DNA of 64,000 bases from Candidatus Altimarinota bacterium (GTDB taxonomy: Bacteria > Patescibacteriota > Gracilibacteria > UBA1369): assembly GCA_963677745.1 (NCBI GenBank), contig OY782391.1, forward strand, positions 192,448 through 256,447, written 5' to 3'. The notes below the pieces were generated by a model, which saw nothing but the letters and a program-made list of their open reading frames with translations, was not told where the DNA came from and ran no database searches. Below are positions 13,261 to 26,377 of this stretch, in pieces. A program made the translations under genes and the position numbers. Numbering within the stretch: position 1 is the first letter of the stretch; each line of letters starts with the position of its first letter.

Positions 13261-13289
13261 TTGCGGAAAAGACGATTTTTTGCTAGAAT
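13261..13289 (+). promoter_or_regulatory. Sigma-70-type promoter candidate (TTGCGG-17 nt-TGcTAGAAT, extended -10)
   Basis: TTGCGG at 13261-13266 and TAGAAT at 13284-13289 with a 17-nt spacer. A TG lies 1 nt upstream of the -10. The site is 27 nt upstream of the ATG at 13316. Confidence 0.5.
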
Positions 13290-13315
13290 ATAAAGATATA
13301 TTTTTAGGCCTTCAT

Positions 13316-13786
13316 ATGGTTAATACAAAAACACAAGCAACTTTTGCCCAGCGTACCGCCACCAGAGTAGAGCAGGAAAACACCTGGCAGCAATACAACG
13401 CCGAAGCCAAGTTCAACTCCAAAAGCATGGTCAAAAGCCTGGAGGAACTGGCCGCCAAGGTTTTCCCCTCCGACGCCTTCAACAGCAACGCCTACCAGGA
13501 AGCCATGGTAAATTCCCTCACCGAAACCATCTCTCCGGAAATCGGAGTGAAAGATTTCTGGAAAGCTCTGGGAAAAGCCGGCTGCAAAACGCTGCGCATT
13601 GTCGAGGGACATTTAAACTTTTTCGACGGCGAAAATCAGAAAATGGACATTACAGCCTATACCCAACCAATTGTCTTTGAAGCCCATTCCAGTTTCTACA
13701 AGCAAAGACAGATGGAGCGTGAAGCACGCATCGAGGAAGCCCGCAAGCAATTACAGGAACTGCTCAAGGAAATTCACCGCCGCTAA
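13316..13786 (+). CDS. Hypothetical protein (156 aa), first gene of the giant-ORF unit
   Basis: ATG at 13316 just downstream of the promoter candidate. The C-terminus is helical and charged (RQMEREARIEEARKQLQELLKEIHRR). I recognise no family. Confidence 0.5.
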   Translation: MVNTKTQATFAQRTATRVEQENTWQQYNAEAKFNSKSMVKSLEELAAKVFPSDAFNSNAYQEAMVNSLTETISPEIGVKDFWKALGKAGCKTLRIVEGHLNFFDGENQKMDITAYTQPIVFEAHSSFYKQRQMEREARIEEARKQLQELLKEIHRR

Positions 13787-13880
13787 AGGCAGCCCCACCT
13801 CCCCCACCCGCCCGGTGGGCAGAATATCAAAAGGGCCTTAACCAATTCTAAAAAACAAATAAAAAAATAAAGCAACGACC

Positions 13881-23400: not shown

Positions 23401-26305
23401 GGGACAACTGGTGGCTTTCAGTACCAATCCTCGCGACACCGGCAATGCTCTGCGTGATCCGGTCGTCTACAGTGAAAGCGGCAACGGTTACTTTGTCTCC
23501 AATTCCGGCGCCGGATGCCCGGCCGTACCGGCAGGAAACAATGTTTCGTTTGAAGCACCTTCCAGTTGTAAATATTCCTATCAGGCTCCCGATGATCAGA
23601 CAGCCGCGACAGTAACAATCAAGGTGAAACAGGATGACGGCGTACCAAACTGCAGCCGCGTCTTCAATGTCCCTTCAATTCCCGATCAACCGGAAATCTG
23701 TCTGGCCCTCAACCTGAGAGTCAATGGTCAATATACTTTAAATCCCCTGATTCAGGCCGGCCAAAGTTACACACTGCAGGTAGACCCCATGACCACCAAA
23801 GGCCATTCGGTCAATATGGTGGAATGGACCGAAAACGGTGGAGGAAAGCTGATTGGCGTCCCCGGCAATCCGGGTGTCTGTCCGGCTTCCATCGATAACG
23901 GTTCTGCCGTCACGCTAAGCGTCTGCCGCTATATTTTTGCTTCTCCCGCCGACGCTACCAATATCGGCTTCTCGGTAAGGGCTGTACCGGATGACGGAGT
24001 TTTCAACTGCCGCGCCTCCGCCCAAAACTATACCCCGCCACAAGGCACGCCATACTGCTTATACCTGGATCTGGACTACACTCCGGAACCGTTCAATCCT
24101 CTCACCAATTCACAGATGAATGCCACTGTGGTGATGAGTGACGGCAGCAAGTATAACGACTATGTCCGCTTCAATTCCACCAACGGAGCCGGTTATTTCT
24201 CCGGCGGTTACCAGGGAACATCGGGCAGCGGCACCAGCGATTTCCGCACCCAGACCGACAGCAATAACAATACCCGCCAGGTCAGCTACGCCAACGGCAA
24301 TTCCGACAGCGGAATCAACATTTTCCTCTCCGACACTTCCGTAAAGATGTCGGCGGCCTGCCAAAGACAATTGCGCCCGCAACCGACACAGGAGGAGGAA
24401 TGTGAAAATCCTCCCCGGATAGTCAAGCATGACAACAAACAATATTGTGCCGAAGAAGGTGACAGCGCTTCCTACTGCTGGACAATCGACGGAGCAGGCA
24501 ATCCGTTGTTCAACAACGGGAAAACCACCGCCACCGGCAATTGTGTAACCTTGAACGGAGATTATTCCAGCTTTGATCTGAAAGTGGAAGACTGCAATCC
24601 TCAGTATCGCGACTACTGTTTCGATACTCTGGAAAAAGAGGATACTCCCAAACTGGAAAAGAGAATCAGTAAACATTCCCCTCTCCGCTACGGCACCAAG
24701 ATCAATTACTCCACTACCGGCAGCCAGAATCAGATTGTGGATTACAAGATTGAATTTACACCGGCCAATTATCAGGACGGCAACTCCATGCTGGTCAGAA
24801 TCCATGATCCGGCCTTTACCGGAAAACTGCAGGGCTGGAAGACCTCCTCCGACGGTGAGTCTAAAGGCTTAGGAGGCACCATTGATTTCAGCAATATTGA
24901 AAACACCGTAAAAATCTCCGGATACGGCCTCTGCCAATCCGGTGCCAGCCGCATGGATAAATGTTTCCTGGTGGATAAAGCAGGCGGCTACCTGGAAATC
25001 CGCGGTATTACTTCACCGGACAAACTGACCATCGAATACAGCGGCCAACTAAAATCCGGCCTGACCAATGAAGATTGTCAGCTGGGAGAGTGGTGCAATG
25101 AACAATTCATCAACCAGTCCTATGTCACCGACATGCAGTACTGCCGTGAAGAAACCGATTCGGAAGGCAATACAACGGTAGTCTGCGAAGATGTTCCCAA
25201 ACCTCAAAACCCGCGCTGCGAATATTTCTACAATGAAAAAGGAGAAAAAGTGCTGGTGTCCGGCAACAAGCAGGATTGTGAAATGCCCAAGTATACCATC
25301 GCCAGCAACACCACTTTGGCCGAACTGGTCTGTCAGTACTTCCTGACCAGAGCCAGCGGCGACGTCTTTATGGAAGACGATCTGGTCTACGGCATCGATG
25401 TTTCCAAATGCTACCCCTTCAAGAACATTTCCTCCACCGTAGTTAAACCGGTCAAACCCATTGAGGGCAATCTGGCCAAAACCGGTACTCCGGAAGTGGT
25501 CAACATCAGCCATGAAATCTGTTCCGCCGGCCAGAGCAATTTCGACAATCTCAAACTGAAGCCTGAACAGATCAAGAATCTTAAAGAACTGTTCGGATCG
25601 GATATCTCCAAACTGTCCAGCCAGATCTGTGAAGTGGGACTGGTACCGGGTTCGGATTGGAACAAAGAAAATATCTCCGCCTCGATCAGTCAGAATATCG
25701 GCAAATTGACCAGATGGAGCAGCGACTTCAATCCCAGCAATCTGATTCAGGGAGTCAGCGACATCCCGGCTGGTGGAGTCTATTACTACAAAGGCAATGG
25801 CGATACGGTTACGATCGACAAGCTTTCCATTCCCGAAGGCAGCGGCGCCCTGACCATCATTGTGGAAAATGCCGATCTGCAGATCAATGGCAATATCGAG
25901 TATTCCGCTACCGGAGCGCCGGCCGATACGGCCGATAAAATCTCCTCACTGGGAGTAATCGTTCTGGACGGCAATATGTACGTTGCACCCAATGTAGACA
26001 AGCTGGCCGGCGCTTACTTCATCCAAAGAACCGCTGATGCCACCGATCCATCATACTATCTCAAAGGCAATGTAATTTCCGGCAGCAAAGCAGCTGCGGG
26101 ACTTATCTCCAATGTCATGCTGACCGTCAACGGATCCATCTACGGAAACATCGGTCCGCTCTTTGACAGCCGCGTGGCAGCCGGTGATATCTCCAAGGAT
26201 GAAGGTGCCATTACCATCCGTTACGACCAGAGAATAATCCAGAATCCTCCCGCCGGTCTGGCCGAAATTCTCGGAACCTTCAGCCAAAGCCAGATAGCTC
26301 AGTAA
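20423..26305 (+). CDS. Giant secreted protein (1960 aa) with a Sec signal peptide and tandem Cys-bracketed ~110-135-aa modules
   Basis: N-terminus MKKIYTFPAILTSILATILLIPSVQA|GYAP. It starts 32 nt after the preceding giant ORF. It has many paired Cys, two Ala/Ser-rich linkers and no C-terminal TM or LPXTG. Confidence 0.85.
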   Translation: MKKIYTFPAILTSILATILLIPSVQAGYAPQVRNTCTLMVKPYNTESGAIEIKDDPNTAVREGEQYINYIGNCSNYLSYVTATANFLGNNQYKIQPPDKNSADTAIKSNAGNIRLPITNHQHNYYNDSFQDSKNGQTYYYRAIVKSFEIKLEKDSVTNIEKVACYTPRPLGTPDEFTTNVDSCNRSYTYWGGTTVQTINNADGTRTVKWVFGTNNTGIAYVLGNDPGINPNLSNAEERKLPFSVDLTTKNQNSEIWSASTTSRVLISEQYINVNNYPANNGKGCNAAGVNSPQSGWCYLDPPPPTHPPYPNSFTQYVKEPVTTPSGVQNTFYWLPIGSVGTIWRKTATPDLSCADLQWDGAFQKKNLLGIFSPDNVNPNALLADEAAVMKFKTIYESGGGVKRPLEYHWVAFYGDQNRPAWFTDEDTLFVFEASQAMSQYLSTSLPPRLLKVAHAAAQSAAQSAASSASAVSGTSASAAQAAAQAAMLKIGAFKDELNSVLSGNPLIDNDQQIYYSGGSEGVTVGIQAYYADGKNISGDGPMVTTTSGQKQKAKSCHLELVIQPPPVNCIDLDISPSTILPNTPVTFTVTPKFNPSNKTIPLNYRWSADQFSLSPQFDLGDMNLLPGSSDADKNPTWVGSGIFDIVETSGNIGNILNGGCPPNCEYKEPLPGGFEVDPLGPVTDIQYADFSGMSVSGNQLQNEMNGAQNFNALGANIFADFGTAAAVKPSASSANKAVSSGVSAAQSAAQVSANNPAYQQFSPGDLGVSPAFTLQSGGFKDSSSSSGLAINPFLETVDNKTYYTGGPGNTVITVKGEGKDGKIYPLCKDSLTIPPSNVICKLLKVKFLENGTEVAIGDLIAGHTYTIQVDKAASVKSDNTPITKYTVGVYNNGGPGSLTPAPGNAASCSDIVVQQVLNPGPYPKAYGTKTSTSVDCKYVYTPKANDQINLLADPHDNVADCQIKQTIPAGPGEICEDLNLTTSPVLAGSSIAQGQLVAFSTNPRDTGNALRDPVVYSESGNGYFVSNSGAGCPAVPAGNNVSFEAPSSCKYSYQAPDDQTAATVTIKVKQDDGVPNCSRVFNVPSIPDQPEICLALNLRVNGQYTLNPLIQAGQSYTLQVDPMTTKGHSVNMVEWTENGGGKLIGVPGNPGVCPASIDNGSAVTLSVCRYIFASPADATNIGFSVRAVPDDGVFNCRASAQNYTPPQGTPYCLYLDLDYTPEPFNPLTNSQMNATVVMSDGSKYNDYVRFNSTNGAGYFSGGYQGTSGSGTSDFRTQTDSNNNTRQVSYANGNSDSGINIFLSDTSVKMSAACQRQLRPQPTQEEECENPPRIVKHDNKQYCAEEGDSASYCWTIDGAGNPLFNNGKTTATGNCVTLNGDYSSFDLKVEDCNPQYRDYCFDTLEKEDTPKLEKRISKHSPLRYGTKINYSTTGSQNQIVDYKIEFTPANYQDGNSMLVRIHDPAFTGKLQGWKTSSDGESKGLGGTIDFSNIENTVKISGYGLCQSGASRMDKCFLVDKAGGYLEIRGITSPDKLTIEYSGQLKSGLTNEDCQLGEWCNEQFINQSYVTDMQYCREETDSEGNTTVVCEDVPKPQNPRCEYFYNEKGEKVLVSGNKQDCEMPKYTIASNTTLAELVCQYFLTRASGDVFMEDDLVYGIDVSKCYPFKNISSTVVKPVKPIEGNLAKTGTPEVVNISHEICSAGQSNFDNLKLKPEQIKNLKELFGSDISKLSSQICEVGLVPGSDWNKENISASISQNIGKLTRWSSDFNPSNLIQGVSDIPAGGVYYYKGNGDTVTIDKLSIPEGSGALTIIVENADLQINGNIEYSATGAPADTADKISSLGVIVLDGNMYVAPNVDKLAGAYFIQRTADATDPSYYLKGNVISGSKAAAGLISNVMLTVNGSIYGNIGPLFDSRVAAGDISKDEGAITIRYDQRIIQNPPAGLAEILGTFSQSQIAQ

Positions 26306-26348
26306 AACCAATTTAAGAGCTTTCGAAAGTTATTATTCCCAAATCGAT

Positions 26349-26377
26349 AAAAGGCCCCGCTGCGCGGGGCCTTTTTT
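26349..26377 (+). terminator. Rho-independent terminator
   Basis: 8-bp GC stem GGCCCCGC/GCGGGGCC (26353-26360 / 26364-26371), loop TGC, then a T6 tract. It lies 44 nt after the giant ORF stop. Confidence 0.75.

Follow-up and report, generated by a model that had tools for sequence, protein, structure and literature searches.

A clade-restricted operon of Peribacteria encoding two giant proteins, with serotype-like alleles that appear to be exchanged by homologous recombination

What might a bacterium of a reduced, host-associated type do with two adjacent giant proteins that no sequence library recognises? This question is raised by a stretch of 64,000 nucleotides (nt) from a Candidatus Altimarinota bacterium (GenBank assembly GCA_963677745.1, contig OY782391.1, positions 192,448 to 256,447; the whole stretch is hereafter called the window), in which a small gene, S, and two giant genes, G1 and G2, form one co-oriented, tightly spaced unit on the + strand that runs from a promoter to a terminator. 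Together, G1 and G2 measure 12,425 bp, i.e., 19.4% of the window, with 32 nt between the two open reading frames (ORFs). A preliminary description of this DNA, made from its letters alone, had already given the extent of the unit, the sizes of these ORFs, the 32-nt gap and a share of ~19%, all of which agree with the ORF list; its notion of a reduced, host-associated organism fits a lineage of the Peregrinibacteria/Peribacteria within the Patescibacteria group. The present analysis indicates that parts of both giants are swapped between strains like serotype cassettes, and this swapping suggests an exposed surface or host-contact role. Our leading, if still tentative, reading is that S-G1-G2 builds an exposed envelope or host-contact structure, a function that we infer from the evidence set out below.

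Relatives of G2 were found in 26 species-level genomes (in a scan with one genome per species), nearly all of which are labelled Peregrinibacteria or Peribacteria; the labels among the relatives are Peregrinibacteria, Peribacteria, Altimarinota, and Gracilibacteria, all in the Patescibacteria group. Among 5.8 billion clustered proteins there were 11 matches to G2, and an exhaustive hidden Markov model search with the C-terminal half of G1 gave 51 matches among 1.84 billion representatives, which are G1-type proteins of roughly 1,600–2,300 amino acids (aa) or shorter entries that are probably fragments. The G1-G2 pair is present in all relatives, and all related loci whose sequence reaches far enough upstream keep the order S, signal-less giant, G2. 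The flanking genes are housekeeping genes, with GreA, sigma-70, DnaG, a family-4 glycosyltransferase, TruB, Mur ligase, Wzy_C, and S30AE upstream and HolA, GatA, FtsX, and RelA downstream. Throughout the near clade the trio sits between S30AE/Wzy_C and HolA/GatA, and in the most distant locus with context it still adjoins HolA while the upstream neighbour is different. The GC content of S, G1, and G2 and their GC content at third codon positions (GC3) agree with those of the neighbouring genes, i.e., the composition is native. Since synteny holds in all loci with context and matches are confined to the clade, the S-G1-G2 operon is not a singleton but a signature, passed on by vertical inheritance, of the Peribacteria, which are tiny and probably depend on a host; it is single-copy, clade-wide, and takes up ~0.9% of the 1.34-Mb genome.

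The giants had been called orphans in the preliminary description, and this term needs to be qualified. It stands insofar as Pfam, NCBIfam, PHROGs, PADLOC, and PDB sequence profiles, the latter from family alignments, assigned no family to S, G1, or G2 (Pfam and NCBIfam being scanned at E≤1 for both giants), so that the claim that neither giant contains a recognisable domain is borne out; the exceptions to this blank are a sub-threshold TipAS match of G1 and weak PHROGs matches of unknown function for S (E 0.004 and weaker). Also RHS, RTX, cadherin, and Big_1 to Big_5 domains, which would have placed the giants in well-characterised families, gave no match in Pfam and NCBIfam scans of G1, G2, and the scanned homologues. 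The term does not stand in the sense of a gene without relatives: orphan here means clade-restricted.

Two further assemblies bear on the integrity and evolution of these genes, i.e., L009, a 1.337-Mb ENA contig of a sister strain of the window, and L010, obtained from Logan. An assembly chimera, a concern of the preliminary description, is contradicted by the absence of frameshifts and by intact ORFs of matching length in these independent assemblies and across related genomes. In the comparison of the window with L009, the S genes do not differ, and the ratios of nonsynonymous to synonymous substitution rates (dN/dS) of G1 (0.19) and G2 (0.06) show that both giants are under purifying selection. 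A dN/dS above 1, which would indicate positive selection, was not seen in gene-wide or cassette tests, with values for the operon genes and the cassette described below all ≤0.22; the diversity of the operon is allelic and recombinational. Beyond the operon, divergence between the window (4557–29101) and L009 forms a mosaic that changes from one gene to the next: identity is 100% for GreA, sigma-70, Wzy_C, S30AE, and S, and the glycosyltransferase and TruB have a synonymous divergence (dS) of 0.17–0.18 (dN/dS of TruB 0.22). This mosaic indicates that homologous recombination is probably frequent along the chromosome, beyond the giant genes.

A sharply bounded divergence lies within G1. Its first 3,300 nt show zero differences between the window and L009, and from position 17214 (aa 1112) onwards the two diverge by 30% at the nucleotide level over 1.2 kb, with a dS of 1.69, a dN/dS of 0.13, and 66% amino-acid identity. 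Past this cassette, the remainder of G1 and the whole of G2 differ by about 5%. The tract comprises exactly the helices, predicted barrel, bundle, and hairpin module of G1 that are described below, and each of the two cassette alleles is only 42–50% identical to that of any other sampled lineage. Silent donor cassettes were found neither in the window nor in L009. A larger exchange is seen between the related loci L003 and L013. Their identity is 99.8% until about nucleotide 10 of G1; from there, nucleotide similarity is undetectable over the whole of G1 and ~336 codons at the start of G2, and beyond this point identity is 95.4%. At the protein level, their S proteins are 100%, their G1 proteins 29%, and their G2 heads 36–53% identical, and the remainder of G2 shows mostly 87–100% identity, with a few segments at 70–79%.

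Over 120 locus pairs, S, the middle part of G2, and the C-terminus of G2 co-vary (Spearman 0.75–0.80), whereas G1 and the G2 head are decoupled from these three (0.08 and 0.32, respectively, with S). In the near clade, G1 falls into type A (the window, L001, L003, L011, L012, L017, and L020; 38–54% identity within the type) and type B (L008, L013, L014, L016, and L018; 36–64%), which share only 15–19% identity with each other. These types do not track the similarity of S: L008 has the S protein closest to that of the window (79%) and yet carries a G1 of type B. Taken together, the alignments argue that G1, either whole or as the barrel cassette only, and the head of G2 are swapped between close strains by homologous recombination, and that the deep allelic types are at odds with the phylogeny that S and the body of G2 trace. 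The pattern is that of serotype-like surface loci, where purifying selection maintains the function of old alleles and homologous recombination between conserved flanking regions moves them. The joint swap of L003 and L013 had suggested that G1 and the G2 head form one co-adapted unit; this idea was rejected as a general rule, as the two vary independently over the 120 pairs (Spearman −0.09, partial correlation −0.09).

The preliminary description had portrayed G2 as a Sec-exported, Cys-rich protein without an anchor, and this portrait holds: its only transmembrane-like segment (aa 3–28) coincides with the signal peptide, nearly all full-length homologues have a similar signal-peptide-like N-terminal hydrophobic segment, and its C-terminus (...NPPAGLAEILGTFSQSQIAQ) contains no LPXTG motif and no transmembrane segment or other anchor. 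Many of its 44 Cys residues form Cys-x(12–17)-Cys pairs at module boundaries. From its N- to its C-terminus, G2 comprises the variable head, a stalk that is rich in disulfides and built of repeated, predicted immunoglobulin (Ig)-like modules, and a highly conserved beta-rich domain. Invariant in the otherwise variable head are C36, C73, H120-x-H122, D154, C164, C183, and a WSATTTSR motif (W256–R263), which suggests that a conserved metal or ligand site may be held on a variable scaffold; Y124 and N126 accompany H120-x-H122 and D154. Three tandem modules of the stalk, each of which opens with a Cys-x(12–17)-Cys linker, are mutually homologous (HHalign probability 98–99%, E 7.5e-14 to 3e-19) and are accompanied by a weaker fourth copy; these repeats are detectable at the profile level only. 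An AlphaFold2 model of aa 1101–1960, built with 10 sequences, has a mean predicted local distance difference test score (pLDDT) of 58 and is confident in two places, the beta-sandwich domains at aa ~1330–1600 and the beta-rich C-terminal domain at aa ~1770–1920. Its best Foldseek matches in the PDB, with E 3.5e-6 to 1e-3, are Cnm, SdrE, the Ig-like domains of PrgB, AgI/II C-domains, RrgB, SpaA-type pilins, and the legs of integrin alpha. The C-terminal ~350 aa are the most conserved part of the protein.

G1 differs from G2 in composition, with a K/E-rich N-terminal half and a Cys content of 0.4% vs. 2.2% in G2; a BLAST self-comparison revealed neither repeats nor similarity between the two giants. 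An AlphaFold2 model of aa 1101–2169 (25 sequences, mean pLDDT 77) starts with helices, which are followed by a meander of ~8 strands (aa 1219–1356), a helical bundle, and a hairpin (aa 1451–1507), after which come a small beta domain, a helical domain, four long strands (aa 2051–2123), and a disordered tail. The top PDB fold match of this model is BamA, a member of the Omp85 family, and transmembrane beta-barrels account for nearly all of the 50 best matches (BamA, BtuB, BcsC, CymA, OccK porins, PgaA, and FapF; E 0.03–0.7). Many matches in a viral structure library, likewise obtained with Foldseek, are membrane beta-barrels, including 8-stranded outer-membrane-protein barrels that align over 144–161 columns with a probability of 0.96–1.0 and a target-normalised TM-score of 0.42–0.51. 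The sequence of the central strands has a matching character. Positions occupied by V, I, L, or F alternate with positions dominated by Gly (also Ser, Thr, and Ala), charges are almost absent from the middle of strands, and aromatic and charged residues lie at the strand ends. This alternation is kept over 25 G1 homologues of 16–52% identity and one near-identical strain at 86%, while the C-terminal strands alternate with charged residues instead, in the manner of a soluble sheet. We predict from these observations that aa 1219–1507 form a conserved amphipathic, glycine-lined beta-barrel and hairpin module, a module that is unexpected in Patescibacteria.

Other parts of G1 provide a few additional clues. 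The sole transmembrane-like hydrophobic patch (aa 1464–1495) lies within the predicted hairpin; it is below the transmembrane threshold in many homologues, and G1 was therefore rejected as an integral membrane protein. A twin-arginine signal was likewise rejected: the sequence RRLVY occurs in some N-termini, with no hydrophobic region after it. Within the C-terminal four-strand unit, C2068 and N2070, which belong to a C-G-N motif at a hairpin turn, are invariant in all G1 homologues, and position 2077 is always acidic; they are among just four invariant residues in alignments of the C-terminal half (16–20% identity). C2068, N2070, and E2077 could represent a catalytic, cross-linking, or isopeptide-type site. 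The distant G1 homologue P0059 contains a LysM peptidoglycan-binding domain (Pfam E 3e-9) at aa ~139–180, just after its S-like N-terminal region, which is a weak hint that G1 may meet peptidoglycan.

This S-like region connects the small protein of the operon with the first giant. S is the most conserved member of the trio, with 72–79% identity between near relatives where G2 has 47–61% and G1 40–42% or less. Its profile matches aa ~20–145 of several G1 homologues (best independent E-value 4e-8), and HHalign aligns the S family with the G1 N-terminal family (probability 95.4%, E 2e-8) in a region that maps to aa 130–169 of the window's G1; the window's own G1, taken alone, was not scored by the S profile. 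On account of these profile matches and the HHalign result, S is a free-standing paralogue of an N-terminal segment of G1. A basic-hydrophobic-aromatic motif near residue 20–30 recurs in most N-termini of G1 and also in S from the distant clade. By eye, S seems to be of mixed alpha/beta character and does not look like a helical hairpin.

That the three genes form a single promoter-to-terminator unit, as proposed in the preliminary description, is corroborated by comparison between loci. An alignment upstream of S shows that the TTGC of the −35 element, the spacing, and a TGnTAnAAT −10 element are all kept in eight related loci, and an ATTATAA element of the divergent S30AE gene on the other strand is likewise kept in the same alignment. 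This conservation is stronger evidence than a match to a consensus would be. A generic promoter scan did not list the promoter of S, and the promoter-like sites that it returned are no more frequent than in shuffled sequences. Of 11 loci examined, one of which is the window, 9 have a hairpin ending at a T-run 3′ of G2, and the sequences of these hairpins are unrelated between loci. The leader of G1 (13850–13880 in the window and its equivalents in L001, L003, L008, L014, L016, L017, and L020) is A-rich, with a conserved (A/C)GACC directly 5′ of the start codon, and lacks a GGAGG of the Shine-Dalgarno type; S and G1 of the distant clade are separated by only 9–12 nt. A candidate stem-loop between S and G1 (about 13797–13822) was rejected, being no better than shuffles (z −0.22) and not conserved. 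Small extra ORFs that are absent from the window occur between G1 and G2 in L006 (7787–7948; 53 aa) and after G2 in L001 (15945–16418) and L008 (16383–17002), the latter two of 141–157 aa. Coordinates of all elements of the unit are compiled in Table 1.

Table 1. Elements of the S-G1-G2 unit in window coordinates.
Element	Position	Strand	Characteristics
Promoter	13261..13289	+	−35 TTGCGG 13261-13266; 17-nt spacer; extended −10 TGCTAGAAT 13281-13289
S	13316..13786	+	ATG at 13316; 156 aa; without signal peptide, without transmembrane segment
G1	13881..20390	+	2169 aa; without signal peptide; fastest-evolving of the trio
S-like segment of G1	14223..14390	+	aa ~115-170, core 130-169
Hypervariable putative recombination cassette of G1	17214..18410	+	aa 1112-1510; sharp left breakpoint at 17214
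Predicted ~8-strand amphipathic beta-meander or barrel of G1	17535..17948	+	aa 1219-1356; pLDDT 72-92 per 10-residue block
Predicted very long beta-hairpin of G1	18231..18401	+	aa 1451-1507; strands of 17 and 31 residues; same hydrophobic/small alternation
C-terminal four-strand beta unit of G1	20031..20249	+	aa 2051-2123; invariant C2068, N2070; always-acidic E2077
Disordered Gly/Ser/Thr-rich C-terminal tail of G1	20259..20387	+	aa 2127-2169; 29% Gly; pLDDT about 30
G2	20423..26305	+	1960 aa; Sec-exported, Cys-rich, without anchor
Signal peptide of G2	20423..20500	+	aa 1-26; cleavage after VQA at aa 26
N-terminal head of G2	20501..21442	+	aa 27-~340; orphan domain; second hypervariable, apparently recombining module
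Three tandem modules of the G2 stalk	22904..24007	+	aa 828-960, 962-1076, 1078-1195; ~115-130 aa each
Modelled beta-sandwich (Ig-like) domains of G2	24410..25222	+	aa ~1330-1600; model pLDDT about 80-90
C-terminal beta-rich (beta-helix-like) domain of G2	25730..26182	+	aa ~1770-1920; followed by the conserved ...RYDQRIIQNPPAGL... end
Intrinsic terminator	26353..26377	+	stem GGCCCCGC / GCGGGGCC 26353-26371; 8-bp GC stem, 3-nt loop; T6 26372-26377

If S-G1-G2 indeed builds an exposed structure, both giants would face an antagonistic or partner-specific environment, i.e., host cells or phages. The conserved C-terminal part of G2 would be the cell-proximal end that holds the protein on the cell's own envelope, and its variable head would be distal and point outward. 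G1 would reach the outside via a non-Sec route, possibly with S acting as a partner or chaperone of its N-terminal domain, and its barrel and hairpin module would insert into a lipid layer in the way that a porin or the stem of a beta-pore-forming toxin does; this layer would most plausibly belong to the envelope of a host or prey cell. The serotype-like turnover of alleles would then reflect diversifying selection by hosts or phages on exposed surfaces. Host attachment, as suggested in the preliminary description, is consistent with the adhesin- and pilin-like Ig folds modelled for G2 and with the serotype-like hypervariability. In its most complete form, the scenario would have a signal-less G1 with a lipid-facing predicted beta-barrel that is exported by an unrecognised route using the N-terminal domain shared by S and G1 and is inserted in the outer membrane of a bacterial host as a feeding or docking channel, with G2 tethering both cells and with barrel and head alleles being traded across species as host-range or phage-escape serotypes; this full combination we regard as improbable.

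Several observations weigh against the reading of an exposed structure. A signal peptide was detected in none of 24 G1 sequences, i.e., the window copy, for which the preliminary description had already noted this, and 23 homologues, and no export route for G1 was identified among the genes scanned in the window. The barrel matches of the G1 model are weak, with a best E of 0.03 in the PDB and none ≤1e-3, and the alternation of hydrophobic and small residues could also fit a sheet that is packed against helices. For the N-terminal half of G1, a deep profile gave no match in the PDB, and LysM was present in one of the 25 G1 proteins scanned, a distant one. Also the head of G2 lacks any match of its deep profile in the PDB or Pfam and any Pfam match in the heads of 25 homologues, and the TM-scores of the G2 fold matches are low (0.1–0.25, for a multi-domain and only partly confident model). 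Finally, hypervariable cassettes also fit a lattice on the bacterium's own envelope, such as a surface layer (S-layer).

Such a lattice, in which G2, perhaps together with G1, would be the S-layer or envelope scaffold of the Peribacteria cell and phage pressure would drive the turnover, is unlikely, if not strongly so. Cassette switching of the S-layer occurs in Clostridioides difficile, and serotype-like alleles exchanged by recombination would suit a lattice, as would a universal, single-copy, syntenic core of genes that has a terminator and a promoter both strong and conserved. Envelope genes lie nearby (Wzy_C, the family-4 glycosyltransferase, and Mur ligase), and S-layer genes have been reported for Peribacteria in passages of the paper PMC4736985. 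Against this stands that Pfam and NCBIfam scans gave no SLH, CWB2, or other S-layer or cell-wall-binding domain, that G1 has no signal peptide, and that the G2 folds resemble the stalks of adhesins and pilins and not lattice formers. A high Cys count is unusual for S-layer proteins, and G2 has 44 Cys. The absence of a signal peptide would be explained if G1 stayed in the cytoplasm as a scaffold by which the exported G2 is organised or anchored from within, and if the predicted barrel were a modelling artefact. The HMW proteins play this part for the P1 adhesin in the attachment organelle of Mycoplasma pneumoniae. The K/E-rich N-terminal half of G1, its low Cys content, and the lack of significance of the barrel matches would fit such a scaffold. 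Two types at 15–19% identity and the swap of a 30%-divergent cassette between near-identical strains are, however, not expected of a scaffold, and the lipid-type alternation that is kept family-wide and the LysM domain in one G1 homologue also speak against it, so that we consider this explanation improbable.

A different role for the barrel would follow from the logic of two-partner secretion (TPS), in which G1 would be a channel or anchor in an outer layer and would display G2. BamA as the top fold match, the lack of an anchor in G2, and the constant adjacency of the two genes are in line with this, as is the gene order, since in shlBA and cdiBA the gene of the barrel protein also precedes that of the giant exoprotein. 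The hallmarks of such systems are missing: besides lacking a signal peptide, G1 has no POTRA, ShlB, or Bac_surface_Ag match, and no Pfam match to the TPS domain (Haemagg_act) was found in full-length G2 or in the heads of 25 homologues. The independent assortment of G1 types and G2-head types (partial correlation −0.09) would be odd for two partners, and, to our knowledge, Patescibacteria are regarded as single-membraned, without an outer membrane, and are thought to lack the BAM (beta-barrel assembly machinery). Two-partner secretion is, in our view, very improbable. Even more doubtful, and highly improbable, is a released giant toxin of the large clostridial kind, with an unrecognised effector elsewhere in G1 and with G2 as an unrelated neighbour. 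The size of G1 (such toxins have about 2,000–2,700 aa), the missing signal peptide, the membrane-active-looking central region, and the polymorphism would be compatible with it. Against it are the absence of Pfam matches to the domains of these toxins (glucosyltransferase, C80 protease, delivery, and CROP) or any other toxin domain, the fact that in all genomes G1 strictly co-occurs with S and G2 and is transcribed in one unit with them, and the lack of an immunity-like or holin-like gene within the unit. A mobile element, a prophage remnant, or an assembly or annotation artefact, which large unannotated ORFs and an integrase with a low-GC island elsewhere in the window (46–54 kb) might bring to mind, has next to no probability. 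It is refuted by synteny and selection, i.e., by a chromosomal position that is fixed across the clade and a dN/dS well below 1 in genes that are intact in independent assemblies; GC and GC3 are native, and neither G1 nor G2 has a PHROGs or PADLOC match.

Other features of the window lie apart from the operon. The integrase just mentioned is a tyrosine recombinase/phage-integrase-family gene (46267–47079, − strand) at the edge of a low-GC region (46267–54000) that has 37–40% GC vs. about 47–50% elsewhere in the window; an NTPase/SWIM protein, a VanW-like protein, and a weak reprolysin-like ORF are encoded in this region, which could represent a genomic island or an integrated element. A 640-aa ORF next to RelA (34473–36395, −) has no Pfam match, and an unannotated ORF also lies next to RelA in L004 and L008. 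Two further conserved proteins are encoded at 679–2076 (+; 465 aa, no match) and 3309–4553 (−; 414 aa, a weak PEGA domain only). The dnaA gene is located at 40537–41982 (−), and the cumulative GC skew falls monotonically over the whole window, without an inflection near dnaA.

Patescibacteria make up a large part of bacterial diversity. In the search for the apparatus with which Peribacteria contact hosts or furnish their surface, the S-G1-G2 operon is a concrete candidate; it is a clade-wide single-copy signature with clearly bounded cassettes. The types of G1 and of the G2 head may serve as a natural strain marker in metagenomes, which could be correlated with co-occurring hosts or phages. 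If it is true that the barrel module is membrane-active, it would bear on how beta-barrels are deployed without an outer membrane and on non-Sec export in Patescibacteria.

Comparison with known systems shows to what extent the operon resembles what has been described elsewhere. As modelled, G2 is like the adhesins and pilins of Gram-positive bacteria (Cnm/CNA, SdrE/SdrG, AgI/II, PrgB, and RrgB) in its tandem Ig-like sandwiches, signal peptide, and repeated stalk, and it differs from them in having no LPXTG motif, no Pfam match to their domains, no detectable sequence similarity, many disulfides, and a different C-terminal domain. The module at aa 1219–1507 of G1 shares with OmpA/OmpX-type barrels, Omp85/BamA, porins, and the stems of beta-pore-forming toxins the modelled long antiparallel strands with a hydrophobic face and a Gly/Ser/Thr face; unlike outer-membrane barrels, it gives no sequence-profile match and is embedded in a 2169-aa signal-less protein, and a literature search returned nothing that links beta-barrels or pore formers to Patescibacteria. 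Small partners encoded just upstream of large signal-less substrates are known from the PE/PPE and Lap-LXG pairs of type VII secretion. S and G1 resemble such pairs, since S is small, signal-less, located just upstream, and homologous to the N-terminal part of the signal-less G1. They have, in contrast to them, no WXG100, PE, PPE, or LXG match in Pfam or NCBIfam; neither an FtsK/EssC-like gene nor other type VII machinery was found among the window ORFs scanned, and we know of no type VII machinery in Patescibacteria.

With regard to variability, recombining serotype-like loci comprise the S-layer cassette of C. difficile, pilin and porin variation, and polymorphic toxin C-termini. G1 and G2 have in common with these loci the divergent alleles, the sharp breakpoints, and the conserved flanks, as well as alleles that are shared across lineages against the phylogeny and that show purifying selection within alleles. 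They are unlike them in that no silent donor copies or immunity genes were seen and in that the variable unit is a whole signal-less protein of ~2,100 aa or its internal cassette, together with the head of the neighbouring giant. The closest counterparts by lineage and lifestyle are the large, often Cys-rich, strain-variable extracellular proteins, perhaps involved in attachment, that passages of Anantharaman et al. (2016; PMC4736985) describe as encoded by “Candidatus Peribacter riflensis”/Peribacteria, and the giant surface proteins of Vampirococcus, an epibiont of the candidate phyla radiation (CPR), for which passages of Moreira et al. (2021; PMC8080830) make a similar point. In the parts of these papers concerned, those proteins are, like S-G1-G2, giant, often signal-peptide-bearing, Cys-rich, and strain-variable; unlike S-G1-G2, they are treated there as a class, and the searched passages contain no conserved trio, S/G1 paralogy, barrel module in a signal-less giant, cassette breakpoints, or allelic types. 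The unit belongs to the broad kind of giant surface or host-interaction proteins of CPR bacteria, with the predicted barrel module of G1 as an unusual component and with a clear population-genetic signature.

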